Shown here: positions 1,845 through 59,805 of the stretch, one piece after another | How the letters are laid out: the number at the start of each line of letters is the position of its first letter | Position numbering within the stretch: the first letter of the stretch is position 1 | Origin: Candidatus Omnitrophota bacterium | GTDB taxonomy: Bacteria; Omnitrophota; Gorgyraeia; Gygaellales; Profunditerraquicolaceae | Assembly (NCBI GenBank): GCA_041661605.1 | Contig: JBAZUE010000004.1 | Location: 7,217-71,216, forward strand | Direction: 5' to 3' | DNA length: 64,000 bases | Notes under the pieces: model-generated | What the model was told of the DNA's origin: nothing | The model's database searches: none | The model's input: the letters and a program-made list of their open reading frames with translations, nothing else | Made by a program: the position numbers and the translations under genes

Positions 1845-1845
1845 G

Positions 1846-2085: not shown

Positions 2086-2086
2086 G

Positions 2087-3763: not shown

Positions 3764-3873
3764 CTCGCGCGTGATGGGGGGTCCTGTTCGCGAATATAGG
3801 AGGGCCATAAACGGGGCGCGCAGCGCCCCGCTGGCCCGACAATTTCGCGAACAGGACCCCCCGTCGCGCGCGA
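3764..3873. repeat. Nested-hairpin element, A-type core in reverse orientation (copy A0)
   Basis: Arms GGGGGGTCCTGTTCGCGAA / TTCGCGAACAGGACCCCCC enclose TATAGGAGGGCC-ATAAAC-GGGGCGC-GCA-GCGCCCC-GCT-GGCCCGACAATT. This is the reverse complement of the core seen at 43-60 kb. Confidence 0.8.
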
Positions 3874-3879
3874 GCCGCG

Positions 3880-5789: not shown

Positions 5790-5863
5790 GGGCGCGTAGC
5801 TCAGCTGGTTAGAGCGCTGCTTTCACACAGCAGAGGTCCGGGGTTCGAGTCCCTGCGCGCCCA
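5790..5863 (+). tRNA. tRNA-Val: tRNA-Val (anticodon CAC)
   Basis: Cloverleaf folded by hand: acceptor GGGCGCG/CGCGCCC, anticodon stem CTGCT/AGCAG, loop TTCACAC, T-loop TTCGAGT. CCA is not encoded. Confidence 0.9.
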
Positions 5864-40845: not shown

Positions 40846-41105
40846 ATTCGATCTGGTCCGTCGTGTGTCAAGTAGGCCGTTTGCATTAACCAACCGGACA
40901 GCTTCAGCCGCCCGCCCCCGCACATTACGATTCCCTTCTTGCTGTCGGAGGCATCTCCGACGAATTTGGCTATCTCGCCGAGAATTAGGCGAGCGCGTCA
41001 ACGGACTGTCAGCGGCCGGCCATGGACGGGCCACGTCGGGTTCTGACACACCTTTGACGGCGGCGGCATAGGTAGTTGGCACCGATCCTGTCTCGAGCTC
41101 CTTTA

Positions 41106-43004
41106 ATGCGCAATCGCCACTTCGTACTCCTCGACATAGCCCTCCTCGCGCCACTCCCGTTCCTGGTGGTAGCGCTGCGCTTCGAGTCGCTCGCCTGGTC
41201 CGCCGAGACTACGCGCGCCGTTCTGGTCTATGCCCTGCTGGCGTTGCCCATCCGCCTGGCCGTCGCCTGGTCCGTCGGCCTCTACCGCGCCCTCTGGAAG
41301 CACGCCTCGCTCGCCGAACTGGAGCGCATCTTCTTCGCCGGCGCTGTCTCCGGCCTGATCACGTTCCTGGTTGGCGCGGTGCTGATTCGGGCCACCGGCC
41401 TCTCCGCCGTGCGCATGCCGTACTCGTCGCTTCTGTGGGACGCCCTGCTCGCCGCGAACCTGATGGCCCTGCCACGCATTGCCGTTCGCGCCCTGAATCG
41501 AACGACACGTCGCACGGGGCGCCCCGCCAAGCGCGCCCTCATCGCCGGCGCCGGCGAGGTGGGCCAGAGCATCCTCCGCGCCCTCCGCACCCATGGCGCG
41601 CACTTCCAGTTCGAGGTCGTCGGCTTCGTGGACGACGACCCCACCAAGAAGGGCATGACCTTGGGTGGCATTTCCGTCCTCGGCTCCCTCGGTGACATTG
41701 CCCGCGTCGTCCGCGAACAGTCGGTGGACGAACTCATCATCGCCATCCCGTCTCCCCGCGGCTCCCTCGTCCGCCGGCTCGTGGCCAGCGCCACCGAGGC
41801 CGGCGCCAAGGTGCAGATCGTCCCGGGCATTCGCGACCTTGTGTCGGGGCGCGTGCGCGTGGAGCAGTTGCGACAGGTACAAATCGAAGATCTCCTGCGC
41901 CGCGACCCCATCGTTACCGACCTCGCCCAGGTGCGCCTGCACGCCGCCAACAAGGTGGTGCTCGTCACCGGCGCGGGCGGCTCGATTGGCTCCGAACTCT
42001 GCCGTCAGATTGCCGCGCTCGACCCGTCGCGACTGGTGCTGCTCGACCATAGCGAGAACCAGGTCTTCGAGATCAGCGGCGAGATGCGCCGTCTGTTCCC
42101 CAAGCTCGCCATGTCGTCGGTCATTGCCGACATCCGAGACGCCCAGCGCATTCACGCCGTCTTCGAGCGCTTCCAGCCGTACGCTGTCTTCCACGCCGCC
42201 GCGCACAAGCACGTGCCGCTCATGGAAGACAACATCGTCGAGGCCGTCACCAACAACATCCTCGGCACGCAGAACGTGGTGGACGCCGCCATTGACGCCG
42301 ACACGCAGCAGCTGGTCTTCATCTCCACCGACAAGGCCGTGCGCCCCACCAGCATCATGGGGGCCACCAAGCGTGTTGCCGAACACATCGTGCAGCAGGC
42401 CGCCAAGGCCGAGCGCCGCAACTTCGTCTCCGTGCGGTTTGGCAACGTGCTGGGCTCGCGTGGCTCGGTCATCCCCACCTTCCTCAATCAGATCAAGAAC
42501 GGCGGCCCCGTTACCGTCACGCACCCCGAGATGCGCCGCTACTTCATGACCATCCCCGAGGCCGTGCAGTTGGTGCTGCAGGCCGGGGCGCTGGGCAAGG
42601 GCGGCGAGCTGTTCGTGCTCGACATGGGCGAGTCGGTCAAGATCGTGGATCTCGCCCGCGACCTCATCCGCCTCTCCGGGCTCGAAGAAGGGGTGGACGT
42701 GGATATCGAGTACACCGGTGTCCGCCCCGGCGAGAAGCTCTACGAGGAAGTCCTGTTCGGCGACGAGGCCATTCGCACCACGTCGCACCCCAAGGTGCTC
42801 TGCACCGACCTCAAGGAGCCCGACGCGGACGTCATGGCGCGGCTGGACCTCTTCGTCAGGACGGCGATGACGGCCGAGGACCAGGAGAACAAGCTGCGCG
42901 AGCTGCTGCACACGCTGGTGCCGGACTTTGCGCACGAGGACGCGAGGACGGATCCGCGGGTGCGCCGCAGTGATCCGGCGGCAGCGTCCGTGCGGGTCGT
43001 CTAG
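41106..43004 (+). CDS. Membrane-bound polysaccharide biosynthesis protein CapD/WbpM/PglF type (UDP-GlcNAc 4,6-dehydratase), copy 1
   Basis: Start taken at MRNRHFVLLD by analogy with copy 2. Four N-terminal TM segments, two Rossmann regions (VTGAGGSIGSEL) and FISTDKAVRPT. Confidence 0.9.
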   Translation: MRNRHFVLLDIALLAPLPFLVVALRFESLAWSAETTRAVLVYALLALPIRLAVAWSVGLYRALWKHASLAELERIFFAGAVSGLITFLVGAVLIRATGLSAVRMPYSSLLWDALLAANLMALPRIAVRALNRTTRRTGRPAKRALIAGAGEVGQSILRALRTHGAHFQFEVVGFVDDDPTKKGMTLGGISVLGSLGDIARVVREQSVDELIIAIPSPRGSLVRRLVASATEAGAKVQIVPGIRDLVSGRVRVEQLRQVQIEDLLRRDPIVTDLAQVRLHAANKVVLVTGAGGSIGSELCRQIAALDPSRLVLLDHSENQVFEISGEMRRLFPKLAMSSVIADIRDAQRIHAVFERFQPYAVFHAAAHKHVPLMEDNIVEAVTNNILGTQNVVDAAIDADTQQLVFISTDKAVRPTSIMGATKRVAEHIVQQAAKAERRNFVSVRFGNVLGSRGSVIPTFLNQIKNGGPVTVTHPEMRRYFMTIPEAVQLVLQAGALGKGGELFVLDMGESVKIVDLARDLIRLSGLEEGVDVDIEYTGVRPGEKLYEEVLFGDEAIRTTSHPKVLCTDLKEPDADVMARLDLFVRTAMTAEDQENKLRELLHTLVPDFAHEDARTDPRVRRSDPAAASVRVV

Positions 43005-43018
43005 GCTTTAGGCCGCCC

Positions 43019-43195
43019 GGCGGGGAAGCGCGCAACTCCGGGGTGTGCTGCTCGCCGCGCGGGGAAGCGCGCAACTCCGGGGGTGTGCTTCGGCGCAATT
43101 CTCGCGACTTCGAGAGCGCGCGCCTAAAGGCGCGCGCTCCGTTTATGTCGCTCCAGTATGCGCCTGTGCACACCCCCGGAGCTGCGCGCTTCGCG
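43019..43195. repeat. Mosaic repeat: 2 tandem a-units plus A-type nested hairpin (copy A1)
   Basis: GCGGGGAAGCGCGCAACTCCGGGGGTGTGC twice (43019, 43057), then core GCGCAATTCTCGCGAC...GTCGCTCCAGTATGCGC, then the exact inverted arm GCACACCCCCGGAGCTGCGCGCTTC. Confidence 0.9.
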
Positions 43196-43273
43196 GGCGC
43201 GAATGCACCGGCGCGCCCGCGCAGTTCGTCCCCTCCCCCACGGCGGCAGGCCCGCGGCGCGTGCTTTCGGGAA

Positions 43274-43296
43274 GCGCCGCAACGGAATGGTGACGC
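43274..43296 (+). repeat. Motif C copy (GCGCCGCAACGGAATGGTGACGC)
   Basis: One of six related copies (43274, 44536, 46899, 48851, 50042, 51257), each lying between a composite repeat and a plus-strand gene. Confidence 0.6.
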
Positions 43297-43528
43297 AGTC
43301 AGGTTGGATCGGCGCTACCGTGTCTTGGCAGTCGCCTCTCCCACGAACCTCGTTCTCCATGCACCCTCGTGTGCCCCACTCGTCATCTTGCCCGGCGGCT
43401 GTTTCTCCCGGCGGTTGCCACGGAGGCAACGCACTGGTATTCTTCACCCACGGTTGGGAGAGCGGTCGTATGACCGTTCGTCGCCTGCAAGGGCGCCCAG
43501 CCGTTTTTCGTTGCCTGGTGCCGACGAA

Positions 43529-44317
43529 GTGAACCTCTTATACGTCGATGAATCGGGCGACACCGGCAAGACCGGAACAGATCACTTGGTTCTCGGGGCG
43601 GCTGCGTTGTTCGAAGGTAAATGGCGCTATCTACGCGTGGCGCTCGCGAAGCTCCTTAAGAAGTATTTTCCTGATGAGGCCAGACGTCCGCCGGAGATTC
43701 ACTGCTCGCACTTGCGGTCCGGAAAGGGACCGTTTGCGGCGCTCTCAATCAGTGAACGCTTTGGATTCTTCGCGGAGCTCTGTGCGCTCCTCAACGACTT
43801 TCGCGACTCGGAAATCACTTTGTTCGCGGTCGTATACCACAAGCAGGCATGGTTCGCGAGAAACCCGGGAGCCACGGGTGACGCCCTGTATTCGGCCGCC
43901 TTCGCTGATCTGGTGTCGCGGTTCGACTTGTTCTTGAAGCGTCGCTATCGCGAAGGATTCCCGTCAAAGGGTCTCATCATCGCCGACCCGCGAAACTCCA
44001 CCCTGAGTCGCGCGCTCCGAAAGTGCGTTCTCCAGTTTCATGACACGGGCACGCCGTGGGCAACGATGGAAAACGTCATAGAGTCGGTGCTGTTTCTCGA
44101 ATCACACGAATCACCAGGGCTTCAACTGGCGGATCTCTGTTCCTACGCCGTGTGGCGGACCATTGCGGCCGGTGACGACGCGCTGGCGCGGAAATTGAAG
44201 TACTGCTTCGACCGCGAACCGATGACGTCGACGGGCGCTGCTGGGAAGTGGCACGGCATGAAATACGTCGGGAGCGACCCCATCGTGCGCGAGCGGGTGA
44301 CGACGGTCTGGACCTGA
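43529..44317 (+). CDS. DUF3800 domain protein
   Basis: GTG start in frame with track ORF 43043..44317. VNLLYVDESGD and LQLADLCSY match the DUF3800 conserved motifs as I recall them. Confidence 0.7.
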   Translation: MNLLYVDESGDTGKTGTDHLVLGAAALFEGKWRYLRVALAKLLKKYFPDEARRPPEIHCSHLRSGKGPFAALSISERFGFFAELCALLNDFRDSEITLFAVVYHKQAWFARNPGATGDALYSAAFADLVSRFDLFLKRRYREGFPSKGLIIADPRNSTLSRALRKCVLQFHDTGTPWATMENVIESVLFLESHESPGLQLADLCSYAVWRTIAAGDDALARKLKYCFDREPMTSTGAAGKWHGMKYVGSDPIVRERVTTVWT

Positions 44318-44359
44318 GGTCCCAGTCTCCGAGCGCCCTCCGTTCTCCTTCCCCCAAGC

Positions 44360-44515
44360 GGCAGGCCCGCATCTCCGTCCGCGCAGGCGGCCGCAGGACC
44401 CATAGACGGCGCGCGCAGCGCGCTCGTAGGGTCCGAGAGCCTGCGCGGTCGGAGATGCGGGCCTGACGCGCCCCCGCCTGCGCGGTCGGAGATGCGGGCC
44501 TGACGCGCCCCCCCG
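44360..44515. repeat. B-type nested hairpin with duplicated right arm (copy B1)
   Basis: GGCAGGCCCGCATCTCCGTCCGCGCAGGC, core GGCCGCAGGACCCATAGACGGCGCGCGCAGCGCGCTCGTAGGGTCCGAGA, then GCCTGCGCGGTCGGAGATGCGGGCCTGAC twice. Confidence 0.9.
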
Positions 44516-44614
44516 TCAGCGGGCTTTCGGTGACAGGCGCAAGCGAATGATGGTCATGCTCCGCCATCGGGGCACCTTGCCCATTCGGTTTCCCCGTGCC
44601 AATGTCGGTATCCC

Positions 44615-46510
44615 ATGCGCAATAGGCACCTGCTCCTCCTCGACCTCGTCCTCCTGGCGCCGCTACCGTTTCTGGTGGTGGCGCTCCGCATGGAGTCGTT
44701 CCAGTGGGGGGCCGACCTCGCCCAGGCAGTTGCCGTCTATGCCGCGCTCGCCCTCCCCATTCGCATCGGCGCGGTGCACCTGAGCGGCATTTACCGCTTC
44801 CTCTGGAAGCACGCGTCGCTGGTTGAGCTGGGGCGCCTCGTCTTCGCCTGCGCCATCGCCGCGGTTCTCACATTCATCACCGGTGCCGTCCTCATCCGCG
44901 GCCTCGGGCTCGCGCCCGTTCGCCTGCCATTCTCGTCGCTGCTCCTCGACGCGCTGTTGGCCTCGGTCGCCCTGGCCGTGCCGCGCATCGCGGTGCGCTT
45001 TGCCGCGCGCAGCCCCGTGGCCAATCGCCGCGGCCAGCACCGCGCGCTCATCGTCGGCGCCGGACACCTGGGCCAGAGCATCCTGCGCGAGCTCGCGCAA
45101 TCGCCGGACACCGCACTGGGCATCCTCCCCGTTGCGTTCGTGGACGATGATTTCCGAAAGCACGGCCAGATGCTCGGCGGCCTTCCCGTGGTCGGCGACT
45201 TGTCCGACCTCGGCCATGCCATTGGCACCTGGCAGGCCACCGAGGTCATCATCGCCGTGCCGGGGGCCAAGGGGGCCTTCATTAGAAAGGTCGTGGACGC
45301 CGCCGCCCCGCATGGCATCACGCCGCGCATCGTCCCCGGTGTGCGCGACATCATTGACGGCCGCATCAACCTGCTCGCCTTGCGCAAGGTGGCCATTGAA
45401 GACCTGTTGCGCCGCGATCCAGTGGTCACCGACCTGGCCGCTGTCGCCGAACTCGTGCGCGGCAAGGTGGTGATGGTCACCGGCGCCGGCGGCTCCATTG
45501 GCAGCGAACTCTGCCGCCAGATCGCCCCGCTCGCGCCAGCCAAGCTGGTGATCCTGGACCACAGCGAGAACCAGGTCTTTGAGATTCACAACGAACTGCT
45601 CAGGCATTTCCCGCAGGTTCGTTATGAGGCGGTCATTGCCGACATCCGGCAGGCGCGTCGCCTGAGCCAGGTGTTCGACCGTCACTGCCCCGACACCATC
45701 TTCCACGCCGCGGCGCACAAGCACGTGCCGCTCATGGAAGAGAACGTCATGGAAGCCATCACCAACAACATCCTCGGCACCGGCAACCTGGTGAATGCGG
45801 CCGCCGCCAGCAGCGTGCAGACATTCGTGTTCATTTCCACCGACAAGGCCGTGCGCCCCACCTCGGTGATGGGATGCACCAAGCGTGTGGCCGAGCAGGT
45901 GGTGCGCGCCGCTGCATACCGCACCGGCCGCAACTTTCTGTCGGTGCGCTTTGGCAACGTGCTCGGGTCGCGCGGCTCGGTGATCCCCACGTTCATCAAG
46001 CAGATCGAGGAGGGCGGCCCTGTGACCGTCACCCACCCCGAGATGAAGCGCTACTTCATGACCATCCCCGAGGCCGTGCAACTGGTGCTGCAGGCCGGGG
46101 CGCTGGGCCGCAGCGGCGAGCTGTTTGCGCTCGACATGGGCGAACCCGTGAAGATCGTGGACCTCGCCCGCGACCTCATTCGCCTGTCGGGGCTGGAAGA
46201 GGGCGTGGACGTGGACATCGCGTTTAGTGGTGTGCGCCCCGGCGAGAAGCTGTACGAAGAGGTCTTCTTCGGGCACGAGGCCGTGGAGCCCACCGCGCAC
46301 CCCAAGGTGTTGCGGTCGCCGGGAGATCCGGTGGACGAGAACACGGCCGAGCTGATTGAGGCGCTCATTCAGGACGCGCTGAGTGACCCGGATAACTGGG
46401 GCGCGTTGCGGCTGCAACTGCGCGCGCTGGTGCCGGACTTTCAGGCGCCGCCGCCGCCGCCGCCGATTGAGCGTGCGTCGGATCCTTCGAGGCGGCTCAA
46501 GCTGGCTTAG
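44615..46510 (+). CDS. CapD/WbpM/PglF-type polysaccharide biosynthesis protein, copy 2 (paralogue)
   Basis: 631 aa, colinear with copy 1 over the whole length (MRNRHLLLLD..., VTGAGGSIGSEL, FISTDKAVRPT). Confidence 0.9.
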   Translation: MRNRHLLLLDLVLLAPLPFLVVALRMESFQWGADLAQAVAVYAALALPIRIGAVHLSGIYRFLWKHASLVELGRLVFACAIAAVLTFITGAVLIRGLGLAPVRLPFSSLLLDALLASVALAVPRIAVRFAARSPVANRRGQHRALIVGAGHLGQSILRELAQSPDTALGILPVAFVDDDFRKHGQMLGGLPVVGDLSDLGHAIGTWQATEVIIAVPGAKGAFIRKVVDAAAPHGITPRIVPGVRDIIDGRINLLALRKVAIEDLLRRDPVVTDLAAVAELVRGKVVMVTGAGGSIGSELCRQIAPLAPAKLVILDHSENQVFEIHNELLRHFPQVRYEAVIADIRQARRLSQVFDRHCPDTIFHAAAHKHVPLMEENVMEAITNNILGTGNLVNAAAASSVQTFVFISTDKAVRPTSVMGCTKRVAEQVVRAAAYRTGRNFLSVRFGNVLGSRGSVIPTFIKQIEEGGPVTVTHPEMKRYFMTIPEAVQLVLQAGALGRSGELFALDMGEPVKIVDLARDLIRLSGLEEGVDVDIAFSGVRPGEKLYEEVFFGHEAVEPTAHPKVLRSPGDPVDENTAELIEALIQDALSDPDNWGALRLQLRALVPDFQAPPPPPPIERASDPSRRLKLA

Positions 46511-46525
46511 TTCGGAGTTCGCCCC

Positions 46526-46660
46526 GCAGGGAAGCGCGCAGCTCCGGGGGTGTGCTTCGGCGCAATTCTCGGGTCTTCGAGAGCGCGCGCCTGACGGCGC
46601 GCGCTCCGTTTGTGACCCTCCAGTATGCGCCTGCGCACACCCCCGGAGCTGCGCGCTTCG
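46526..46660. repeat. a-unit plus A-type nested hairpin (copy A2)
   Basis: Same architecture as A1; the inner helix is changed to GGGTC/GACCC. Confidence 0.9.
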
Positions 46661-46711
46661 TGTGCGTTGGGGCATCGTCGCGCCCGCCGTCGTTGGCCCC
46701 TCCCCTCGAGC

Positions 46712-46863
46712 GGCAGGCCCGTATCTCCGTCCGCGGCAGGCGGCCGCAGGACCCATAGACGGCGCGCGCAGCGCGCTCGTAGGGTCCGAGAGCCTGCGCG
46801 GTCGGAGATGCGGGCCTGCCGCGCCCCCTCCTGCGCGGTCGGAGATGCGGGACTGCCGCGCCT
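46712..46863. repeat. B-type nested hairpin, right arm x2 (copy B2)
   Basis: Read directly; same core as B1. Confidence 0.9.
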
Positions 46864-46974
46864 CGAGCAGAGCTGCGCGCCGGCGATGAACCGGTGTCTG
46901 GCGGGACAATACGGTGACGCACGCGTGGGCTCTCGCGGTCATCATGCGCGATGCACGCAGACTGCCGGTGATCG

Positions 46975-47316
46975 ATGCGCCTTCCAGGTGCGGAGCGCGC
47001 GTATGTGGACCCCGCAAAAGTGCGGGACTACCTCCTGTCGCCGGTCCACCCCCAGGGCCGGTTCAAGGCCGACTTCTTTCGAGGACTCGGCTACACTCGC
47101 GCGAGGTGGCCGCGTCTTCAGCAGGATTTCAAGGATGGGGCGACTTCTGATGGAGCAACCCCAGCCGCGCTGACGGTCTTCGGGCAGTTTTTCGAATTGC
47201 GTGTTATGCTTCGAGGACCGAGTGGTCGCGCGGCGCTCCTCGTAACCATCTGGATCATTCGGAGGGAGGAAGATTTCCCTCGATTCGTCACAGCGTACCC
47301 CGGAGCACCGAGATGA
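46975..47316 (+). CDS. DUF6883 domain protein
   Basis: 113 aa. VDPAKVRDYLLSPVHPQGRFKADFFRGLGY...FPRFVTAYP matches the DUF6883 pattern as I recall it. Confidence 0.6.
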   Translation: MRLPGAERAYVDPAKVRDYLLSPVHPQGRFKADFFRGLGYTRARWPRLQQDFKDGATSDGATPAALTVFGQFFELRVMLRGPSGRAALLVTIWIIRREEDFPRFVTAYPGAPR

Positions 47317-47534
47317 CGTTCCGAGAACTCGATACCGTGGTGCTCATCCGCGATTTGCCGGAGCACGGTCTGCGTCGCGGTGATGTGGGCACGATCGTGC
47401 ATTTGCACGCACACGACGCGTTCGAGGTTGAGTTCATGAGCGCGTCCGGTCGGACACACGCCGTACTAGCGCTTACCGCCGCCGATGTGCGCGCCGCGGA
47501 AGACCGGGACCTCGTGGCGGTGCGGAGCCTGTAG
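47313..47534 (+). CDS. DUF4926 domain protein
   Basis: 73 aa. LDTVVLIRDLPEHGLRRGDVGTIVHLH...FEVEF is typical DUF4926. 4-nt overlap with the DUF6883 gene, a recurrent pair. Confidence 0.7.
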   Translation: MTFRELDTVVLIRDLPEHGLRRGDVGTIVHLHAHDAFEVEFMSASGRTHAVLALTAADVRAAEDRDLVAVRSL

Positions 47535-47536
47535 CG

Positions 47537-47816
47537 CGCGGGGAAGCTCGCAGTTCCGGGGGTGTGCTGCTCGCGCCGCGGGGAAGCACGCAACTCCGGG
47601 GGTGTGCTTCGTGTGCGTTGGGGCATCGTCGCGCCCGCCGTCGTTGGCCCCTCCCCTCAAGCGGCAGGCCCGCATCTCCGTCCGCGCAGGCGGCCGCAGG
47701 ACCCATAGACGGCGCGCGCAGCGCGCTCGTAGGGGTCCGAGAGCCTGCGCGAACGGAGATGCGGGCCTGCCGCGCCCCCTCCTGCGCGGTCGGAGATGCG
47801 GGACTGCCGCGCCCCC
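47537..47816. repeat. Composite repeat: 2 a-units (no A hairpin), linker, B-type hairpin with right arm x2 (copy B3)
   Basis: Read directly. Colinear with 46526-46863 except for the absence of 46560-46660. Confidence 0.9.
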
Positions 47817-47820
47817 GTCG

Positions 47821-48204
47821 TCAGCGGGCCCGGCGCCTCGCGTCGTAGGGCGCCGCCGGCTTCTCCCGGACCATGGACAAAAGGAGCGCCGGGCGCTTCT
47901 CCGTCAACTGGAGCAGGCGCAGCGCCGCGCCGTCGGGCTGCCGCTTCCCCTGCTCCCACGACCGCACCGTCTCGGCGCTCACGTTCAGCGCCTGGGCAAA
48001 CACGGACTGCGACAGCTTGAGGCGTGACCGAAGCTTGCTCACGCGCAGGCACGAATACTCGGGCGCTGCGGCAACCGTGCTGTCGCGTGCCGTGCGCGCG
48101 ACGCGGCGCACGCGCACGCGGCTCCCCGTCCTGCCCTGTTCGAGGTCACGGAGTTGCTCGAACGCCTCCACAACTTCGTCGCCCAGCTTTCTCGGCTTGG
48201 TCAT
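47821..48204 (-). CDS. XRE-family HTH antitoxin (HigA-2-like)
   Basis: 127 aa. RSRLKLSQSVFAQALNVSAETVRSWEQGKRQPDGAALRLLQL HTH; downstream of the toxin gene. Confidence 0.75.
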   Translation of the reverse strand: MTKPRKLGDEVVEAFEQLRDLEQGRTGSRVRVRRVARTARDSTVAAAPEYSCLRVSKLRSRLKLSQSVFAQALNVSAETVRSWEQGKRQPDGAALRLLQLTEKRPALLLSMVREKPAAPYDARRRAR

Positions 48205-48207
48205 TGA

Positions 48208-48513
48208 CTACCTCAGGTCGGAGACGATCTGGCGAATGCGCTTCCGCTGTTCATTCGTGAGATCCGCTTGCACGTTCTTGGTGTACGCGGTCAGTACGTA
48301 CACACGACCGCGTGCGAGTCTCAGGAAGTACAGGAACCGCGCCCCAGCGCGCTTGCCACGCCCCGGTATCGCCACGCGAACCTTGCGTGCGCCACCCAAA
48401 CCAGGAACCACGCTGCCCACGTCCGGCTTGGCGATCACCAGCGCTTCAAATGCCCGCTCGACCTCGGCGGGAATCAGTGAGCGCGCCAGCCGCTCGTACG
48501 GAGCGAGGTACAC
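48208..48513 (-). CDS. RelE/ParE-superfamily toxin (HigB-2-like)
   Basis: 101 aa (GTG start). GLGGARKVRVAIPGRGKRAGARFLYF...VYVLTAYTKNVQADLT pattern. Confidence 0.7.
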   Translation of the reverse strand: MYLAPYERLARSLIPAEVERAFEALVIAKPDVGSVVPGLGGARKVRVAIPGRGKRAGARFLYFLRLARGRVYVLTAYTKNVQADLTNEQRKRIRQIVSDLR

Positions 48514-48589
48514 GAACTCGAGGAACTGGGTGCCGAGGTGACGCGGTATGAGCTAGTATAGTACCTAGTACCAGTGTAAGCAAGCACGA

Positions 48590-48874
48590 CCGGGAAGCGC
48601 GCAGCGCCGTTCGCGCCACGCGGGGAAGCGCGCAGCTCCGGGGGTGTGCTTCGCTCGCCTTCTCCTCCCCCAAGCGGCAGGCCCGCATCTCCGTCCGCGC
48701 AGGCGGCCGCAGGACCCATAGACGGCGCGCGCAGCGCGCTCGTAGGGTCCGAGAGCCTGCGCGGTCGGAGATGCGGGCCTGCCGCGCCCCTCCTAGGCCG
48801 TCGAGCATTCGCGGGAGCGGTTACCCGACGCGGTGTGCGGGCCTTCGAGGGGCGGCGCAATGGAAAGGTGACGC
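48590..48874. repeat. Composite repeat: 2 a-units, B-type hairpin (copy B4), conserved tail ending in motif C
   Basis: Read directly. The tail 48796-48874 is about 75 nt colinear with 49990-50065. Confidence 0.9.
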
Positions 48875-48945
48875 TCGAGGCGCCCTCGCATAGTACGCTG
48901 GGGCGACGAGACCGTCTCTTGCGCCCTCTTCGCAATACTGCTAAG

Positions 48946-49392
48946 ATGCCAGAATCAGCACTCGTTCTCCGTCGGAAACCGCTCGTCTTCGTTGCATCGT
49001 CCCGAAGGGACCTCCAACGGATGCCGGAGGGCGTGCAGGACTCCTTCGGATTCAAGCTCGACCGCGCGCAGATCGGCAGGCATCCGGTGGGGGCGCGCCC
49101 GTTCGGGGAGGGACTGCCTGCGGCCATCCTGAAACTGACCGCTGACGACGGCGGAGAAACCTACCGCGCCGCGTACGTCGTCGAGTTCGCTGGTGTCGTC
49201 TATGTGCTCGACGTTTTTCAGAAGAAGTCGAAGGCTGGTACGAAGACTCCAAAGACCGACAAGGCGCGCGTGAGACAGCGCTACCAGTGGGCCAGACAGC
49301 ATTACGAAACGAATCGGCAGCGTTATCTCGAGGACGCCGAGGCAGCGGCTCTCGTTCCGAGCGCGTCCAAACGCAGGAGAGACGATCAATGA
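48946..49392 (+). CDS. Gp49-like (DUF891) RelE/HigB-type toxin
   Basis: Internal ATG of track ORF 48646..49392. PLVFVASSRRDLQRMPEGVQDSFGFKLDRAQIG...YRAAYVVEFAGVVYVLDVFQKKSK pattern. Confidence 0.75.
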   Translation: MPESALVLRRKPLVFVASSRRDLQRMPEGVQDSFGFKLDRAQIGRHPVGARPFGEGLPAAILKLTADDGGETYRAAYVVEFAGVVYVLDVFQKKSKAGTKTPKTDKARVRQRYQWARQHYETNRQRYLEDAEAAALVPSASKRRRDDQ

Positions 49393-49787
49393 GTGGCAGA
49401 CGACGCACGCCCTCCCGCATGGCCGCGGCGCCAGGTAACGCGCCGAGCGAGGTCCTGTTCGAAGAGGGGAGCGGTAACGTGTTCGCGGACCTCGGTTTCG
49501 CTGACGCGGCTGAGCACCAGGCCAAGGCCGACCTCTGCCATGTGATCATCAACATCGTCGAGGATCACGGTTGGACGCAGAAAAAGGCGGCCGACGCGCT
49601 CGGCATCGCGGAGTCCGACATGTCGGACCTGATGAACGGCAAGCTGCGTCGCTTCAGCCGCGAGCGTCTAGAGCGCTATCTCTACGCGCTCGGCATGGAA
49701 ATTCGCATTCAGGTTTATCCACGCCCCGCGGGCAGGCGGCCTGCTGGAGTCTCAGTGCAGGTGTTCGAGGGCAAACCCGCGAGGTAA
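49389..49787 (+). CDS. XRE-family HTH antitoxin
   Basis: ATGA overlap with the toxin gene. GWTQKKAADALGIAESDMSDLMNGKLRRFSRERLERYL HTH. Confidence 0.75.
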   Translation: MSGRRRTPSRMAAAPGNAPSEVLFEEGSGNVFADLGFADAAEHQAKADLCHVIINIVEDHGWTQKKAADALGIAESDMSDLMNGKLRRFSRERLERYLYALGMEIRIQVYPRPAGRRPAGVSVQVFEGKPAR

Positions 49788-50065
49788 GGCACTGCGCAGC
49801 TCCGTTCGCGCCACGCGGGGAAGCGCGCAGCTCCGTTCGCGCAGGCGGCCGCAGGACCCATAGACGGCGCGCGCAGCGCGCTCGTAGGGTCCGAGAGCCT
49901 GCGCGGTCGGAGGTGCGGGACTGCCGCGCCCCCTAGCCTGTCCGAGAGCCTGCGCGGTCGGAGGTGCGGGCCTGACGCGCCCCTCCTCGGGCCGTCGAGC
50001 ATTCGCGGGGGCGGTTGCCCGACGTGGCGCGAGCTTTTGGGGGTGGCGCAATGGAATGGTGACGC
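49788..50065. repeat. Composite repeat: 2 a-units fused directly to the B-type core (copy B5), right arm x2, tail with motif C
   Basis: Read directly; starts at the nucleotide after the TAA stop. Confidence 0.9.
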
Positions 50066-50189
50066 GATCTCGGCGGCGTGGTCTATCGTATCGTACCCAC
50101 CAAGAGCGGACGATAGATGCCGCCGTGAACGCACGAATTCATGGAACTCACCGACCAGTCGGTGGTTGCCCTGCAGGAGTCATTCGACT

Positions 50190-50207
50190 ATGGTACAATT
50201 GTACCAT
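50190..50207. promoter_or_regulatory. Perfect 18-nt palindrome ATGGTACAATTGTACCAT, candidate TA operator
   Basis: Read directly, 18 nt upstream of the vapC-like ATG. Confidence 0.5.
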
Positions 50208-50224
50208 TAGCATCGGACACTCCC

Positions 50225-50617
50225 ATGATCGTCGTCGATACGTCTGTCGTGCTCGCGGTGCTCCTGATCGAGCCCGAACGGACGACAATCCTCAAGCGCA
50301 CGCGCGGCAAGCGCATACTCGCGGCCCCGAGCCTAGGGTGGGAAGTCGGCAATGCACTGGTGGCCTTGGTACGCCGGCGGCGGGCCGATTACCCAGCCGT
50401 TGAGCGGGCATGGCGGTCGTTCGGACGCATTCACCTCGCGTACGCGAACTGCGACATCTCGGCGGCGCTGCGGCTCGCAACGGAGGCGAGTCTGTACGCC
50501 TACGATGCCTACGTCATCGAGACAGCGCGAGCGGCGGGCGCCCCGCTGCTGACGCTGGACAAAAAGCAGCAGGCCGTGGCCGCCGAGCGTGGTGTGGAAA
50601 TTCTGGAGATCACCTGA
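50225..50617 (+). CDS. PIN-domain toxin (VapC-like)
   Basis: MIVVDTSVVLAVL start. Acidic PIN residues include D5 in MIVVD and D96 in AYDAYVIETA. Confidence 0.8.
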   Translation: MIVVDTSVVLAVLLIEPERTTILKRTRGKRILAAPSLGWEVGNALVALVRRRRADYPAVERAWRSFGRIHLAYANCDISAALRLATEASLYAYDAYVIETARAAGAPLLTLDKKQQAVAAERGVEILEIT

Positions 50618-50883
50618 TGCGCGAATACACGTTCTCCCGGGCTCGGCAACAGCTCGCCAGTCTCCTGGATCTCGCGCGCCAGGAAGGCGGTGTGCTCATC
50701 CGGCGACGCGATGGTCAGGTGTTCGAAGTCAAGCCCGCCAGGCGCACCGGCGGCTCGCCGCTCGACGTGCCAGGAGTCGATCTCGAACTCGCGACCGGCG
50801 AGATGATGGCGGCACTGGCCGAGTCACGCGCGTCTGGTGCCCGGTTCGTGCGGGAACGTCCGGCCAGGAAGCGACGGAAGTAG
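50617..50883 (+). CDS. Phd/YefM-type antitoxin, encoded downstream of the PIN gene
   Basis: MREYTFSRARQQLASLLDLARQEGGVLIRRRDGQVFEV; TGATG stop-start overlap with the PIN gene. Confidence 0.65.
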   Translation: MREYTFSRARQQLASLLDLARQEGGVLIRRRDGQVFEVKPARRTGGSPLDVPGVDLELATGEMMAALAESRASGARFVRERPARKRRK

Positions 50884-50890
50884 TACGCTG

Positions 50891-51281
50891 CGCCGCGGGG
50901 AAGCGCGCAACTCCGTTCGCGCCACGCGGGGAAGCGCGCAGCTCCGTTCGCGCCGCGCTGGGAAGCGCGCAGCTCCGGGGGTGCGAATGCATCGCTGCGC
51001 CCGCCGTTCTCCTCCCCCAAGCGGCAGGCCCGCATCTCCGTCCGCGCCGGCGGCCGCAGGACCCATAGACGGCGCGCGCAGCGCGCTCGTAGGGTCCGAG
51101 AGCCTGCGCGGTCGGAGATGCGGGCCTGCCGCGCCCCCTCCTGCGCGGTCGGAGATGCGGGACTGCCGCGCCCCCTCCTGCGAGGATGGAGATGCGGGAC
51201 TGACGCGCCCCCCGATGCGGCGGAGAGGCTGACCCGCAGCGGCGCGTGCGTTTGGCGGCGGGCGCAATGGAATGGTGCCGC
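50891..51281. repeat. Composite repeat: 3 a-units, B-type hairpin with right arm x3 (copy B6), motif C
   Basis: Read directly. a-units at 50891, 50925 and 50956; right arms at 51102, 51140 and 51177. Confidence 0.9.
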
Positions 51282-51351
51282 GTTTTCGGCGGCGCGGGTT
51301 ATCAAGGTGCTCCTGCTCGAAGCAGCTTCCCGCGAGCGCCGGAGAAACGTC

Positions 51352-51600
51352 ATGAATGCACTTGCCGCATGGCTCAGATCCACCCAGACTTCCGACATGG
51401 CAGACGATCGAGACATCCGGCCAGAAGCTCATCGGCTCGTAGAGGGACTTCCCGCCGGCGCCGGCTGGGACGATCTCATGTACGAGATCTACGTCCGGCA
51501 GGCCATTGAGGCGGGACTGGCCGACGGAGACGCCGGGCGAACCGTGGATCACGAAACGGCCATGTCGCGCATCCGCGCACGGATTCGGCGCGCGTCCTGA
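51352..51600 (+). CDS. Putative antitoxin partner of the ParE-like toxin
   Basis: Internal ATG (alternative 51397). WDDLMYEIYVRQAIEAGLADGDAGRTVDHETAMSRI is a motif I associate with small antitoxins upstream of ParE/RelE genes. 1-nt overlap with the toxin start. Confidence 0.55.
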   Translation: MNALAAWLRSTQTSDMADDRDIRPEAHRLVEGLPAGAGWDDLMYEIYVRQAIEAGLADGDAGRTVDHETAMSRIRARIRRAS

Positions 51601-51890
51601 TGTTGCCGCTCCGTTGGTCGGAGCAGGCACTCGAGCATATGGGTGGCATCGCGGAGTACCTGAGCTTGTCATCCCCGCTGTACGCCGAGAGCGCGATCCA
51701 GCGTATCGAAGCCCGAGTGCAGCAGCTGCAACTCCACCCGGAACTCGGCAAGCCGGCACGCGAATCTAGTGATCCTTCAGTTCGTGAGCTGGTGGACGCA
51801 CCGTACCGGGTCTTTTATCGCGCGCGCGCCGACTGCATTGAGGTGATTGCTGTGGTGCATGGTCGAAATCAGGTTCCGACTTCGCTCTAG
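51600..51890 (+). CDS. RelE/ParE-family toxin
   Basis: 96 aa. LRWSEQALEHMGGIAEYL...YRVFYRARADCIEVIAVVHGR pattern. Confidence 0.8.
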   Translation: MLPLRWSEQALEHMGGIAEYLSLSSPLYAESAIQRIEARVQQLQLHPELGKPARESSDPSVRELVDAPYRVFYRARADCIEVIAVVHGRNQVPTSL

Positions 51891-51980
51891 ATGCGTTCGC
51901 GGGTGCGCTTGAGATCTACGGTGACGTCGCGGCGGTACGAACGGCCTGATCTTGCCGCTCCAGGGGTCTGCTCGTCGCCT

Positions 51981-52228
51981 GGCGGGGAAGCGCGCAGCTC
52001 CGGGGGTGTGCTGCTCGCGCCGCGGGGAAGCGCGCAGCTCCGGGGGTGTGCTTCGCGTGCGAGCGGACTGCAGTTCGCCTCCCCCCAAGCGGCAGGCCCG
52101 CATCTCCGTCCGCGCAGGCGGCCGCAGGACCCATAGACGGCGCGCGCAGCGCGCTCGTAGGGTCCGAGAGCCTGCGCGGTCGGAGATGCGGGCCTGCCGC
52201 GCCCCCCTGGGCTCTGGGGGACTGCCGA
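51981..52228. repeat. Composite repeat: 2 a-units, linker, B-type hairpin (copy B7)
   Basis: Read directly; ends 2 nt before the hflX stop codon. Confidence 0.9.
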
Positions 52229-52229
52229 G

Positions 52230-53516
52230 CTACGAGAGGCCGAGCCGCGCCAGCAAATCGCTTCCGGCGCGTACTCGCACGACCAGCTCACCCGTCTCGT
52301 CGTCCATGTGCTGGCCGAGCACCTCGGCGCCGCGGTGCAACTCGGAGAGCCGCTTGCCGTCGCCCGGACTCATCCGCACCTCGCGCACCGGGCGGCTCGC
52401 ACGCCGCGCATCGAGCAGCGCGGCGCGCAGCGGCTCCAGCCCGCCCGGGCGTACCGCGCTCACGAACGTGCTCCCCGGCAGCAGGTTGTCCATCCGCTCG
52501 CGCAGCGCCTGCTCCTCGCCCGGCGTCAGCCGGTCAATCTTGTTGAACACATGCAGTACGGGTGTGTCATGCACGCCGAGATCCGCGAGCACGTCGTCAA
52601 CAACGAGCCGCTGCTCCTCCCATGTGGGGTGGCTCGCGTCAATCACGTGCAGCAGCAGGTCGGCCTCGCGCGTCTCCTCGAGCGTCGCCCGGAAACTCGC
52701 CACGAGATCGTGCGGCAGTTTGCGAATAAAACCGACAGTGTCCGTGAGCAGCACGTCCGCGCCCTTCCCTCCCCCGAGATTCACTTCGCGCGTGAGGGGA
52801 TCGAGCGTCGCAAACAGACGGTCTTCCACGAAGATGTCGTCCGCGGAACTCATGCCCCTCAGGATCGAACTCTTGCCGGCATTGGTGTAGCCCACCAACG
52901 CCGCGCGGAACTGCGAGCGCCGCTGCTTGCGCTGCACTTCGCGGCTCTTGGTCACTTCCGTCAGCCGCTCCTTCAGCAGGCGAATCCTGTGCCCCACGAG
53001 CCGGCGATCGGTCTCGAGCTGCGTTTCACCGGGGCCGCGCACGCCGATGCCGCCGCGGAACTTCTCGAGGTGACTCCACAACTTCGTCAGCCGCGGCAGT
53101 GAATACTCGAGCTGGGCCAGCTCCACCTGCATCTTGGCCTCGGCGCTGCGCGCACGGATGGCGAAGATGTCGAGGATCAGTTCTGCGCGGTCAATGACGC
53201 GCTTCGTGAGGGCGGCTTCGAGATTCTTCCCCTGCGCCGGCGTCAGCTCGTCGTCGAAGATCACGACCGACGCGTCCTTGTCGGCGATCAGCGTCTTCAG
53301 CTCTTCGAGCTTGCCGCTACCGATGTAGGTGGCACTGTCGGGGCGGTCAAGTTGCTGCGTGAGTTCGCCCACCACCTCGGCGCCAGCGGTGTCGGCGAGG
53401 CGGCCGAGTTCTTCGAGGTGCTCCTGCACGAGGAGCTTGCCGGTGCCGCGCTTGAGGGGCGCGCCCACCAAGATGGCGCGTTCCTGGGGCGGGCTGAGAT
53501 CAATGATTTCTTTCAC
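52230..53516 (-). CDS. hflX: GTPase HflX
   Basis: 428 aa. HflX N-domain (DRAELILDIFAIRARSAEAKMQVELAQLEYSLPRL) plus G-domain motifs (GYTNAGKSS, DTVGF, NKID). Confidence 0.95.
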   Translation of the reverse strand: MKEIIDLSPPQERAILVGAPLKRGTGKLLVQEHLEELGRLADTAGAEVVGELTQQLDRPDSATYIGSGKLEELKTLIADKDASVVIFDDELTPAQGKNLEAALTKRVIDRAELILDIFAIRARSAEAKMQVELAQLEYSLPRLTKLWSHLEKFRGGIGVRGPGETQLETDRRLVGHRIRLLKERLTEVTKSREVQRKQRRSQFRAALVGYTNAGKSSILRGMSSADDIFVEDRLFATLDPLTREVNLGGGKGADVLLTDTVGFIRKLPHDLVASFRATLEETREADLLLHVIDASHPTWEEQRLVVDDVLADLGVHDTPVLHVFNKIDRLTPGEEQALRERMDNLLPGSTFVSAVRPGGLEPLRAALLDARRASRPVREVRMSPGDGKRLSELHRGAEVLGQHMDDETGELVVRVRAGSDLLARLGLS

Positions 53517-53546
53517 ACATCAAATCTAGTTCGGGTGGCAGAGTCA

Positions 53547-53773
53547 GCGCACGGCAGGGGTCGGATCGCGCAAGCTCTCGGACCCTACGGGCTGGCATCG
53601 CAGGCGCGCGCGACAGGGGTTCGTTCGCGCAGGCTCTCGGACCCTACGGGCTGGCATCGATCGCGCGCACGGCAGGGGTTCGCCCGCGCAGGCTCTCGGA
53701 CCCTACGAGCGCGCTGCGCGCGCCGTCTATGGGTCCTGCGGCCGCCTGCGCGGGCGAACCCCTGCCGTGCGCG
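53547..53773. repeat. B-type element in flipped orientation: ~57-nt unit x3, only the last with a complete core and inverted arm (copy B8)
   Basis: GCGCACGGCAGGGGT...CGCGCAGGCTCTCGGACCCTACG repeated at 53547, 53600 and 53658. The third continues AGCGCGCTGCGCGCGCCGTCTATGGGTCCTGCGGCCGCCTGCGCGGGCGAACCCCTGCCGTGCGCGCG. Confidence 0.9.
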
Positions 53774-53998
53774 CGTCCTTTCGATAGATCGAGTGGCCGG
53801 TTGCGCCAGCCCGACCCGTGCTGCGCGCTGACGGCATTCCCGCAGGCGCCTTGGCTGCGCTCGGCGCCATCGGCTCCGCGCGCCCCGGGAACGCTGGGAG
53901 CGAATGCGAAGTGCGGGGATTCGATGCGCACCGCGACCAACCGGTGACGCTGCTAGCCACGGGGGCCATTAGCCTCGCACTCGGATGCCAACCGAGTA

Positions 53999-54027
53999 TT
54001 GACACGATGTATCTTATACGATACAGT
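53999..54027 (+). promoter_or_regulatory. Candidate sigma70-type promoter TTGACA-17-TACAGT with embedded GTATC-N6-GATAC inverted repeat
   Basis: Read directly upstream of, and overlapping, the first ATG of the killer-protein ORF. Confidence 0.4.
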
Positions 54028-54345
54028 AGTGGGGCCTGCGCAGAAGTCCGCGTGACCGCTGCGTTCCTGGCCTGGATGGAGCGACTACGTGACGCGCGCG
54101 CTCGAGCGAGCATCGTGGCCCGCATTGACCGACGGTCTGACGGGAATCCCGGTGACTGTCGGTCCGTCGGGGATGGAGTCTTCGAGATGCGAGTTCATGT
54201 GGGTGCCGGCTATCGCGTCTACTTCTCCTGGGTGGGCGCTCGCATCGCGGTGTTGCTCGTCGGCGGGGATACGCAGAGCCAACCTGAGGATATCATTCGT
54301 GCAAAAGCTCTCGCGCGAAGCAGCGCTGTTGATCGCCAAGAGTAA
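54007..54345 (+). CDS. Addiction-module killer protein (RelE/ParE superfamily)
   Basis: FLAWMERLRDARARASIVARIDRRSDGNPGDCRSVGDGVFEMRVHVGAGYRVYF...GGDTQSQPEDIIRAK pattern. The start may instead be the GTG at 54052. Confidence 0.75.
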   Translation: MYLIRYSSGACAEVRVTAAFLAWMERLRDARARASIVARIDRRSDGNPGDCRSVGDGVFEMRVHVGAGYRVYFSWVGARIAVLLVGGDTQSQPEDIIRAKALARSSAVDRQE

Positions 54346-54694
54346 GATCAAGCTTATTCCGTGGGACGTCGCAGACCACCTGAGGACGCCCTACGAAATG
54401 GCGCTCTACCTCGAGGCGACGTTCGAGGAGTTCGGCCATGACGGCCGAGCGGTGCTACGGGCCCTGGGCGGCATCGCGCGCGCCCAAGGCATGACCTCCG
54501 TCGCGCGGCGGTCAGGGCTGGGGCGTGAGAGCCTCTACAAGGCGCTCTCTGGCGAGGGAAACCCGAGCTTCGACACCGTGCTCCGCGTCATGGACGCCCT
54601 CGGCCTGCGCCTCACCGCGTTGGTAAAGGAGCCCGCGCCCGCCCCGCGCACCCGCACCGCGCGCAAACGCCCGACGCGGAAGCGCGGCACTTAG
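54329..54694 (+). CDS. Addiction-module antidote protein (HigA-family HTH)
   Basis: PWDVADHLRTPYEMALYLEATFEE...GMTSVARRSGLGRESLYKALSGEGNPSFDTVLRVMDALGLRL. No ATG available; TTG 54329 or GTG 54296. Confidence 0.75.
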   Translation: MIAKSKIKLIPWDVADHLRTPYEMALYLEATFEEFGHDGRAVLRALGGIARAQGMTSVARRSGLGRESLYKALSGEGNPSFDTVLRVMDALGLRLTALVKEPAPAPRTRTARKRPTRKRGT

Positions 54695-54700
54695 CTCTCT

Positions 54701-54812
54701 GCGCGCACGGCAGGGGTTCGCTCGCGCAGGCGGCCGCAGGACCCATAGACGGCGCGCGCAGCGCGCTCGTAGGGTCCGAGAGCCTGCGCGGGCGAACTCC
54801 TGCCGCGCGCGC
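54701..54812. repeat. B-type nested hairpin (copy B9) with the alternative arm GCGCGCACGGCAGGGGTTCGCTCGCGCAGGC
   Basis: Read directly, between convergent genes. Confidence 0.9.
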
Positions 54813-54827
54813 TGCAATCGTAAAGAA

Positions 54828-57523: not shown

Positions 57524-57546
57524 GCTTCAATTTAGCGCGCTTGCGG

Positions 57547-57756
57547 CAGAGCGGCGCAGGTCAGGGGGGCCTTGCTACAGAGCGGCGCAGGTCAGGGGGG
57601 CCTTGCTACAGAGCGGCGCAGGTCAGGGGGGCCTTGCTACAGAGCGGCGCAGGTCAGGGGGGCCGGTCCCGCGCAATTCTCGCGTGAACGGGCGCGCTGC
57701 GCGCGCCGTCTATGCGCTCCAGTATTCGCGGGACCGGCCCCCCTGACCTGCGCCGC
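57547..57756. repeat. 31-nt unit x4 (CAGAGCGGCGCAGGTCAGGGGGGCCTTGCTA) leading into an A-type nested hairpin (copy A3)
   Basis: Units at 57547, 57578, 57609 and 57640. The fourth diverges into the arm GGCGCAGGTCAGGGGGGCCGGTCCCGCG, mirrored exactly at 57727-57754. Confidence 0.9.
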
Positions 57757-57954
57757 GCATCTGTTTGGGCCGCGCTTGTGCCCGCGGCGCGCATCTGCCC
57801 GGGCCGCACATCTGCCCGCGTCGCACCGCCGCCCGCGCCGTTGCGCCGGTCGGGCGAAAGACCGCGATGCGGCGAGCGGCGTTTCGATGATGGTGGCTCG
57901 CACGCGCGGCGCCATGCTGCAGCACGCAATGCGCCTCTTTCTCTTCCTGCTACT

Positions 57955-59170: not shown

Positions 59171-59183
59171 CCTCCGTTATCAC

Positions 59184-59199
59184 GAATGTTATAACATTC
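59184..59199. promoter_or_regulatory. Perfect 16-nt palindrome GAATGTTATAACATTC, candidate operator of the antitoxin-doc operon
   Basis: Read directly, 14 nt upstream of the antitoxin start. Confidence 0.5.
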
Positions 59200-59241
59200 A
59201 CGCTCACTGCGCAAACTTCGCTGCGCGTGGCCGCTTGGGGA

Positions 59242-59800: not shown

Positions 59801-59805
59801 CGCGC

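Follow-up and report, generated by a model that had tools for sequence, protein, structure and literature searches.

In a stretch of 64,000 nucleotides deposited under Candidatus Omnitrophota bacterium (GenBank assembly GCA_041661605.1, contig JBAZUE010000004.1, positions 7,217 to 71,216 of the forward strand; hereafter the window, with coordinates counted from its first letter), seven gene units, most of them toxin–antitoxin (TA) modules, follow one another between the stop codon of capD copy 1 (43004) and that of hflX (52230). They are separated by one ordered mosaic repeat that comprises, in this order, a-units, an A hairpin, a C-rich linker, a B hairpin with 1-3 right arms and a motif designated C. 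The question raised by this locus is whether such delimiters belong to an integron-like cassette system or are intergenic repeats of another kind. The analogy with integrons is one of geometry, which fits, and does not extend to the features by which integrons are recognized. Based on the comparisons described below, we lean toward the interpretation that the delimiters are a lineage-specific mosaic intergenic repeat of a Gemmatimonas clade, similar to bacterial interspersed mosaic elements (BIMEs), to REPINs (hairpins formed by repetitive extragenic palindromes, REPs) and to Correia elements, which has been amplified locally in a hot spot of TA modules and whose direct copies act as recombination substrates.

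The array is bounded on the left by capD copy 1 (41076-43004, + strand; Pfam Polysacc_synt_2, E 4e-119) and on the right by hflX (52230-53516, - strand; Pfam), an anchor conserved in 80 related loci. The window derives from a Gemmatimonas-like genome: HflX, of which no exact match is on record, is 90-93% identical to proteins of three Gemmatimonas metagenome-assembled genomes, and the related loci (numbered with the prefix L) belong to Gemmatimonadota in 80 of 80 cases. The units, on the + strand unless stated, contain a DUF3800 gene (43529-44317; Pfam DUF3800, E 2e-16), a second capD copy (44615-46510; Pfam CapD) with 70-85% DNA identity to the first, DUF6883-DUF4926 (46975-47534), an inverted RelE(PF06296)/HTH pair of HigBA type (47821-48513, - strand), Gp49-XRE (HTH_37; 48955-49787), VapC(PIN)-Phd (50141-50883) and an 82-aa antitoxin candidate with ParE (51352-51890). 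Pfam searches confirmed the units as they had been named by an earlier, sequence-only reading of the window; the 82-aa candidate, without a Pfam match, was called from its position and start-codon context. The flanks of the array encode, also by Pfam, HflX, an HI1420 antidote, LEA_2, MazE-PIN, RarA/MgsA and Doc-MazE.

Neither the GC content of the window (~67%) nor the fact that repeats often break or mis-join assemblies, which would speak for chance GC-rich similarity or for an assembly artefact, accounts for the frequencies observed: the a-unit GGGAAGCGCGCAGCTCCG gave 15 matches vs 0.34 expected from shuffled sequence, the B arm 17 vs 0, and a 22-nt core recurs 11 times without mismatch from 44.4 to 59.3 kb. 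Tandem repeats with periods of 31, 37, 40, 51, 59 and 64 nt occur in the window, and the same composites are found in relatives. Moreover, five metagenome contigs from sample Ga0172379 (L088, L098, L132, L143, and L147) match window 44.3-54.8 kb at 99.4-100% identity; since these independent short-read contigs reproduce the arrangement, it is not an artefact of assembly, and this explanation, chance included, can practically be dismissed. Each of the five contigs starts and stops within a B hairpin; in practice, the repeats fragment short-read assemblies of this clade.

The hairpins are without exception nested palindromes of 110-133 nt built around the core ATAGACGGCGCGCGCAGCGCGC and form a single superfamily. 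In the B hairpin, referred to as T12, 31-nt outer arms enclose, in order, GGCCGCA, a stem of GGACCC, the core hairpin with its closing GGGTCC, and GAGA. A second type of arms (type 2) surrounds the same 50-nt center at 53.7 and 54.7 kb and also in L001 and L117, while in the T3 type (3.8, 57.7, 59.3, and 59.6 kb) the core lies within CGCGAATAyyGGAG...GAGAATTkCGCG. The A hairpin corresponds to a minus-oriented T3 element whose outer left arm is the a-unit; comparison of two junctions of the array (J2 and J3, see below) indicates that "solo" a-units would be what is left after deletion of the loop and right arm between CTTCG microhomologies. Pairing is maintained in 95% of the cells of a T12 alignment (27 distinct copies from several genomes) vs 28-48% when the partner column is slid, and both sides have changed in 22 of the 31 pairs of the outer stem. 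Likewise, the T3 copies that follow the acyl-CoA dehydrogenase gene are orthologous between the window and L131, and their differences are compensated. Single-stranded DNA folds of the elements range from -51 to -70 kcal/mol, with z scores of about -10 to -11.6. One stem mismatch in B is shared by most copies of this genome and is not conserved across genomes. Tandem copying of one outer arm is general (B 37 nt x2-3, 59 nt x3, 31 nt x4, 64 nt x3) and occurs at 44.4, 46.8, 47.7, 49.9, 51.1, 53.5, 57.5, and 59.6 kb, as well as in L091 and L004. Type-1 B copies are 96.9% identical within the genome and 94.4% between genomes, the corresponding value for hflX DNA being 80-86%.

Searches against Rfam (gathering threshold and E<=1) left the hairpins unmatched and returned only a tRNA and the DUF3800-VI motif. 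An origin from phages was ruled out, as IMG/VR contains neither the core nor motif C. An interpretation of the 31-40 nt tandem units as CRISPR or type III antitoxin repeats was likewise discarded, given that the units are hairpin arms and the neighboring genes are type II modules.

The eight junctions, J0 to J7, all read on the + strand, conserve the order of the modules and differ in those that are missing. J0 (43005-43528) contains two a-units (43019-43098), the A hairpin (43062-43194), the linker and motif C (43259-43296); its B hairpin is missing except for the first 13 nt, which remain as a stub after the C-rich linker. The T3-type A hairpin of J0, which is minus-oriented, gives a fold of -63.4 kcal/mol (z -11.5). 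J1 (44318-44614) is free of a-units and consists of the linker, the B left arm (44357-44387), the core (44389-44439) and two 37-nt right arms (44439-44512). In J2 (46511-46974) one a-unit is followed by the A hairpin (46529-46661), a linker X (46655-46708), a B hairpin whose right arm is present twice (46709-46866) and, ahead of DUF6883, a C-like motif. J3 (47535-47820) carries two 40-nt a-units, a linker X that shares 98% identity with its J2 counterpart, and a B hairpin with two right arms, and is devoid of motif C. The a-units of J4 (48514-48954), of 31 and 40 nt, are followed by the linker, a B hairpin with one right arm (48673-48792; -62 kcal/mol, z -10.7), a spacer S and motif C (48837-48874). 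In J5 (49788-50140), where neither a linker nor a B left arm is present, the a-units are fused straight to the core and continue with two right arms (51-nt period), spacer S and motif C (50028-50065). J6 (50884-51351) comprises three a-units (50894-50983), the linker, a B hairpin with three right arms (51020-51213) and an extended motif C (51244-51281), and J7 (51891-52229) a-units (51954-52061), the linker and a B hairpin (52088-52206) that abuts the hflX stop codon, a boundary also present in L002 and L117. The same ordered modules had been claimed for every junction; the order stands, and J0, J1, and J5 depart from the full set. The statement that a-units begin 0-15 nt past five plus-strand stop codons was borne out at all five (43004, 46510, 47534, 49787, and 50883). 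Motif C, the final module of the junction, had been proposed to occur only before plus-strand units, which is correct within the window and fails in L117, where it precedes an inverted HigBA unit. As previously noted for the inverted RelE/HTH cassette, the B hairpins around it keep the plus orientation. J0 also includes, at 43451-43503 (+), downstream of motif C and 25 nt upstream of the DUF3800 start (GTG at 43529), a DUF3800-VI RNA motif (Rfam RF02915, 42.5 bits vs a threshold of 35).

The comparison with relatives evidenced that this region is highly variable. In L003, L005, L006, and L068 the tRNA and acyl-CoA dehydrogenase genes (window 3.9-5.9 kb) lie directly beside hflX, so that the 46 kb that separate the tRNA from hflX in the window represent insertion or variable DNA. 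L003, the closest relative by HflX, has no TA/hairpin blocks between hflX, LEA_2, rarA, and the ZIP gene, its intergenic gaps there being 19-100 nt; all 15 hairpin elements of the window fall in DNA missing from this genome, including block 53517-54827 (killer/HI1420 with type-2 hairpins), which is missing as a whole. L068, like L003, has none of the flanking TA/hairpin blocks, L005 retains a Doc-MazE-like module and L006 has one T12 hairpin past the acyl-CoA dehydrogenase gene. Other relatives combine the same parts in different ways. L126 and L138 share the order capD, a-A-linker-B, DUF6883-DUF4926, linker and C without B, a 190-aa gene, VapC-Phd, the right part of A with C, an antitoxin-like open reading frame (without a Pfam match) preceding ParE, and B. 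L117 displays B, the same inverted HigBA unit as the window, a-A-linker-B and hflX, and in L002 hflX is followed by B-A, DUF6883-DUF4926, B-A, YefM-YoeB and B, with Gp49-XRE, VapC-Phd, and ParE on the opposite side of hflX in reversed order and unchanged orientation. The DUF6883-DUF4926 module also occurs in L002, L126/L138, and L115, next to other genes than in the window. A 3.5-kb indel relative to L126, which comprises DUF3800 and capD copy 2, ends in 200-nt direct repeats (43052-43254 and 46519-46721, 85% identity) in which the 3' end of capD is joined to a, A and the linker. The changed order with conserved orientation and the repeat-bounded indels match what recombination between direct repeats yields. 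Part of the sequence-only reading is borne out by the relatives: cassettes are present, absent or re-ordered among relatives with their orientation to the repeats kept, and at least one presence/absence difference (the 3.5-kb indel) ends in repeats. Its term "recombination scaffold" is a fair description, given the variable cassettes and the repeat-ended indel.

The two diverged capD copies around DUF3800, together with a ~170-nt duplicate of the capD 3' end located behind the Gp49-XRE module of L007 (L007 7700-7850), suggest that recombination within capD may also bring in cassettes. With regard to the 46-kb stretch (5864-52229; tRNA at 5790-5863), the capD genes and the cassette array share it with a polysaccharide gene cluster (7-32 kb) whose GC content is 55-60% vs 67%; no integrase adjoins the tRNA, the first gene there encoding a DegT aminotransferase.

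The hairpins are independent of the cassettes. The downstream flank of Gp49-XRE is a+B in the window; at this place L002 has a short T3 hairpin and L007 a duplicate fragment of the capD 3' end, and the stretch common to the three extends only from motif C to the stop codon. L004 and L007 have accumulations of TA modules around hflX in which long palindromes are missing, and some cassettes of L126 abut without any junction. Conversely, a complete a-A-linker-B(x3)-C composite is located between ftsK and the UPF0102 gene in L128; as this is a housekeeping locus, the ordered composite is itself a repeated unit. Single hairpins adjoin genes for a LytTR regulator, a deoxynucleoside kinase, an Fe-S protein and a dipeptidase, as well as lying behind the acyl-CoA dehydrogenase gene, and hairpins are also found upstream of genes and between divergent genes. 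Among metagenome elements recovered by the core alone, 26 of 42 are in this one neighborhood, which indicates local amplification in a sample that is biased toward it. The genes adjoining the elements are slightly shorter (median 159 vs 188 aa), a weak difference that is confounded. The idea that the composite serves specifically to delimit cassettes, or that they need it as a landing pad, was not sustained, in view of the hairpin-free TA modules of L007 and L004, the changing flank of Gp49-XRE, the single hairpin of window 1-3.9 kb, which is also rich in TA genes, and the composite at ftsK/UPF0102. Among 85 neighbor proteins, Uma2/DUF820 PD-(D/E)xK nucleases were encoded beside hairpins four times (window 237-812, - strand, carries such a gene) and UPF0102/YraN-like nucleases twice.

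These features resemble those of known mosaic repeats. BIMEs, described as tandem and mosaic by Ton-Hoang et al. (PMC3333891), and the REPs and REPINs of Enterobacteria and Pseudomonas, share with the elements of the window the combination of extragenic palindromes and conserved linkers in ordered mosaics, the optional modules, the tandem amplification, the compensated stem changes, the location behind genes and the persistence across related genomes. Differences are the strong concentration of the copies in one neighborhood and the host phylum, Gemmatimonadota. The Correia elements or NIMEs (neisserial intergenic mosaic elements) are intergenic mosaic elements, bounded by dRS3 repeats, which as dispersed inverted-repeat elements of 100-400 nt can bear outward promoters and terminators and form mosaic arrays beside variable gene cassettes; those cassettes are silent, whereas TA operons are framed here, there is no sequence relation, and neither duplication of a TA target (the dinucleotide) nor dRS3-like 20-mers were seen. 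In the sole alignable empty site, that of L003, the insert is flanked by AATCTAG...GAACTAG, a duplication that is not assignable to one element because the insert consists of two hairpins and a TA module; the flanks of solitary elements were not alignable for target-site duplication. In the folA-apaH gap of Escherichia coli, a hypervariable region between housekeeping genes in which REPs are common, the ccdO157 TA system is present or absent (PMC3184786), although this is a single module with short REPs and not an array with an ordered composite repeat. Nothing relevant was found in the literature on Gemmatimonas repeats or integrons; the long nested palindromic mosaic repeats constitute a family undescribed in Gemmatimonadota.

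Based on this evidence, a mechanism can be proposed for the lineage-specific mosaic repeat. The composite would consist of T12 and T3 nested palindromes, centered on a GC-hairpin core that is conserved, of a C-rich linker and, at its end, of promoter-like motif C with TAnnnT 16-20 nt downstream; as judged from comparisons of the junctions, it would be copied as a unit, mostly just behind stop codons; one of its outer arms would readily expand in tandem and its hairpins would readily be lost by short-repeat deletion. The hflX region would be a hot spot in which self-contained TA operons accumulate in many lineages and, because the composite was amplified locally in this lineage, same-orientation copies of ~120-330 nt frame each module. 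Recombination between these direct repeats (the B hairpin copies have ~97% identity over 117 nt within the genome), most simply RecA-dependent, by unequal exchange or by Campbell-type excision and re-insertion, would delete, duplicate and re-order modules with their orientation kept, while read-through would probably be stopped by the hairpins and motif C would probably serve as an outward promoter. The locus would then be a natural example of how intergenic repeats and TA operons build an integron-like array without integron machinery.

Several observations weigh against this interpretation. The similarity of adjacent junctions does not significantly exceed that of distant ones (p 0.06-0.18), so that the data do not demonstrate a simple history in which each insertion duplicated a junction. 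REPs measure 30-40 nt and have a conserved 5' GTAG, whereas the elements described here are nested hairpins of 110-133 nt, ~3x longer, in which the tetranucleotide is 3' of the core stem and varies between GTAG, GCAG, GAGG, and AAGG. REPs are mobilized by Y1 transposases of the RAYT (REP-associated tyrosine transposase) family, the cognate gene being present once and flanked by the repeats, and neither a RAYT/Y1 transposase nor an insertion sequence was detected in ~1.2 Mb of related sequence, the window and 149 related loci included; since no mobilizing enzyme was found, copying as a unit is deduced from the distribution of the composite. This set of sequences, which is the one used for the census of elements, is itself biased, as much of it derives from this neighborhood. 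Lastly, the 50-nt center does not vary, even in its unpaired bases, between genomes with genes 15-20% apart, suggesting sequence-specific recognition by a protein, for which plain homologous recombination gives no account. Together with the high identity of the B copies, the invariance of the core suggests either such recognition or a recent spread. The conservation of the core above that of neighboring housekeeping genes and the regular tandem duplication of one hairpin arm both point to a specific protein partner.

Such a partner would be expected if the array were an integron-like platform without intI, in which a site-specific recombinase encoded elsewhere recognizes the folded hairpin and/or motif C, and inserts and excises cassettes at one set position that separates motif C from the first a-unit. 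The likeness to integrons and to CALINs (clusters of attC sites lacking integron-integrases) is considerable: cassettes of ~1 kb, mostly TA modules, whose content varies by strain with orientation kept, are separated by homogeneous, structured repeats of one orientation, even around the inverted cassette; the repeat starts 0-15 nt past a stop codon and ends just ahead of the unique sequence of the next unit, and the cassette-specific homology of Gp49-XRE begins right past motif C. Nevertheless, the integron interpretation was ruled out on integrase, core sites and the linkage between cassette and repeat. An integron has intI and attI at one end of its array; capD and hflX flank the present one. 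With IntI1 and XerD as tblastn queries, no tyrosine recombinase was matched below E 0.27 in the window and 149 related loci; the lack of intI is not decisive by itself because CALINs lack it by definition, but the R'' (RYYYAAC) and R' (GTTRRRY) core sites of attC are missing as well: RYYYAAC has no match in any of the eight junctions, GTTRRRY has one, in J0, and no pair exists. In this regard, the absence of intI and of core sites reported by the sequence-only reading was corroborated. An attC site is an imperfect hairpin of 57-141 nt with extrahelical bases; a hairpin of 117 nt is present in the window, near-perfect and apparently devoid of such bases, with the one genome-specific stem mismatch mentioned above. 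Integron cassettes carry their own attC when they move, while here the repeats do not travel with the cassette, the same one having different hairpins or none in three genomes, and the composite and single hairpins occur at housekeeping loci. In addition, the shared end of the junctions is not fixed, as J5 and J6 have ~30 nt in common beyond motif C, and some cassettes of L126 lack junctions altogether. On balance, a platform of this kind seems quite improbable. The same low likelihood is given to the broader proposal that the composite is the site of an unlinked recombinase or HUH-type enzyme that moves whole TA operons or else a mobile terminator-promoter insulator that captures genes; if an unlinked enzyme were responsible, Gemmatimonadota would have a cassette platform analogous to the integron and mechanistically unrelated to it.

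It may also be considered that the composite is a regulatory insulator under selection, in which the hairpins terminate or stabilize upstream transcripts and motif C with TAnnnT restarts transcription, so that each autoregulated TA operon would be isolated, and which has spread by its usefulness and not by mobility. The location directly behind stop codons, the covariation of the arms and a sequence conservation above that of neighboring genes are consistent with this function, and so is the structure of motif C. Its extended form is GGCGCGTGCkTTyGG-N6-8-GCGCAATGGAATGGTGACGC, a TAnnnT hexamer is located 16-20 nt past GGTGACGC in 10 of the 11 genuine copies read (L117 is the exception), and in L128 it takes the form GTGACA-17 nt-TATTAG-9 nt-ATG of a housekeeping gene; it is best read as a putative outward promoter-like end, with a spacing that is long for sigma-70. 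However, the TA units already have their own sigma-70-like promoters/operators 50-70 nt downstream of motif C, and a sigma-70/terminator scan of the sequence gave no enrichment and did not detect motif C. Regarding termination, the inner stem of the A hairpin (43114-43139), followed by CGTTTATGT, has a terminator-like score on the plus strand and is the sole hairpin stem that qualifies; the B hairpin lacks a T tract, and the 8 terminator-like sites found represent no enrichment over the 10.6 expected from shuffles. Hairpins located upstream of genes or between divergent genes, close relatives that run the modules without hairpins and a core with invariant unpaired bases, which are unnecessary for termination, are also difficult to reconcile with an insulator, an explanation that we consider plausible but unlikely.

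Beyond the seven-unit array, the family flanks further blocks, in line with what had been anticipated, with hairpins at 53.5-59.8 kb next to the killer-antidote, rarA, and Doc-MazE genes. A type-2 hairpin at 53547-53790 (-), with the same core, other covarying arms and three tandem 59-nt arm units, folds at -69.8 kcal/mol and precedes the module formed by a Gp49-like "killer" and the HI1420 antidote (53818-54694, +), the killer being a weak match below the Pfam threshold (E 7.5e-4). A second type-2 hairpin, inverted with respect to the former, follows at 54699-54815 (+). Upstream of rarA, a T3-type hairpin (57540-57760, -) has one arm in four tandem 31-nt copies, and a region between Doc-MazE and the ZIP gene (59242-59805) contains two T3-type hairpins (59291-59354, -; 59574-59636, +) with tandem arm units of 15, 37, and 64 nt. 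Outside 43-60 kb, the sole member of the family in the window is a solitary T3-type hairpin (3764-3874, +) situated just past the stop codon of the acyl-CoA dehydrogenase gene. It marks the edge of a second TA-rich stretch (window 1-3900), which has a copy of motif C at 188 (-) and encodes Uma2 (237-812, -), BrnA (880-1272), DUF2283 (1462-1755), DUF4160 (2087-2344, -) and a nucleotidyltransferase (2540-3280); L003 lacks most of this stretch (1289-3866).

hflX and rarA have in common a short upstream motif on the coding strand (CTAGATTTGATGT-GTG and CTAAATTGAAGC-GTG, at 53517-53530 and 57524-57540) which is kept in relatives, and the inserted blocks start directly past it. Perfect palindromes that resemble TA operators, TGGTACAATTGTACCA, ACGAATGTTATAACATTCGT, and GTTTCCAAATTGGAAAC (50193-50208, 59183-59203, and about 60-100), precede VapC-Phd, Doc-MazE and the module at the edge of the window, respectively. 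Short tandem arrays of 17 nt x5 (57750-57840), 15 nt x2.6 (59242-59280), 37 nt x3.2 (59349-59469) and 11 nt x4.4 (56121-56168) are located beside or near T3 hairpins, and a different array, GCCAGCCTCwCGSCGC x7, is found at the orthologous place in L001.

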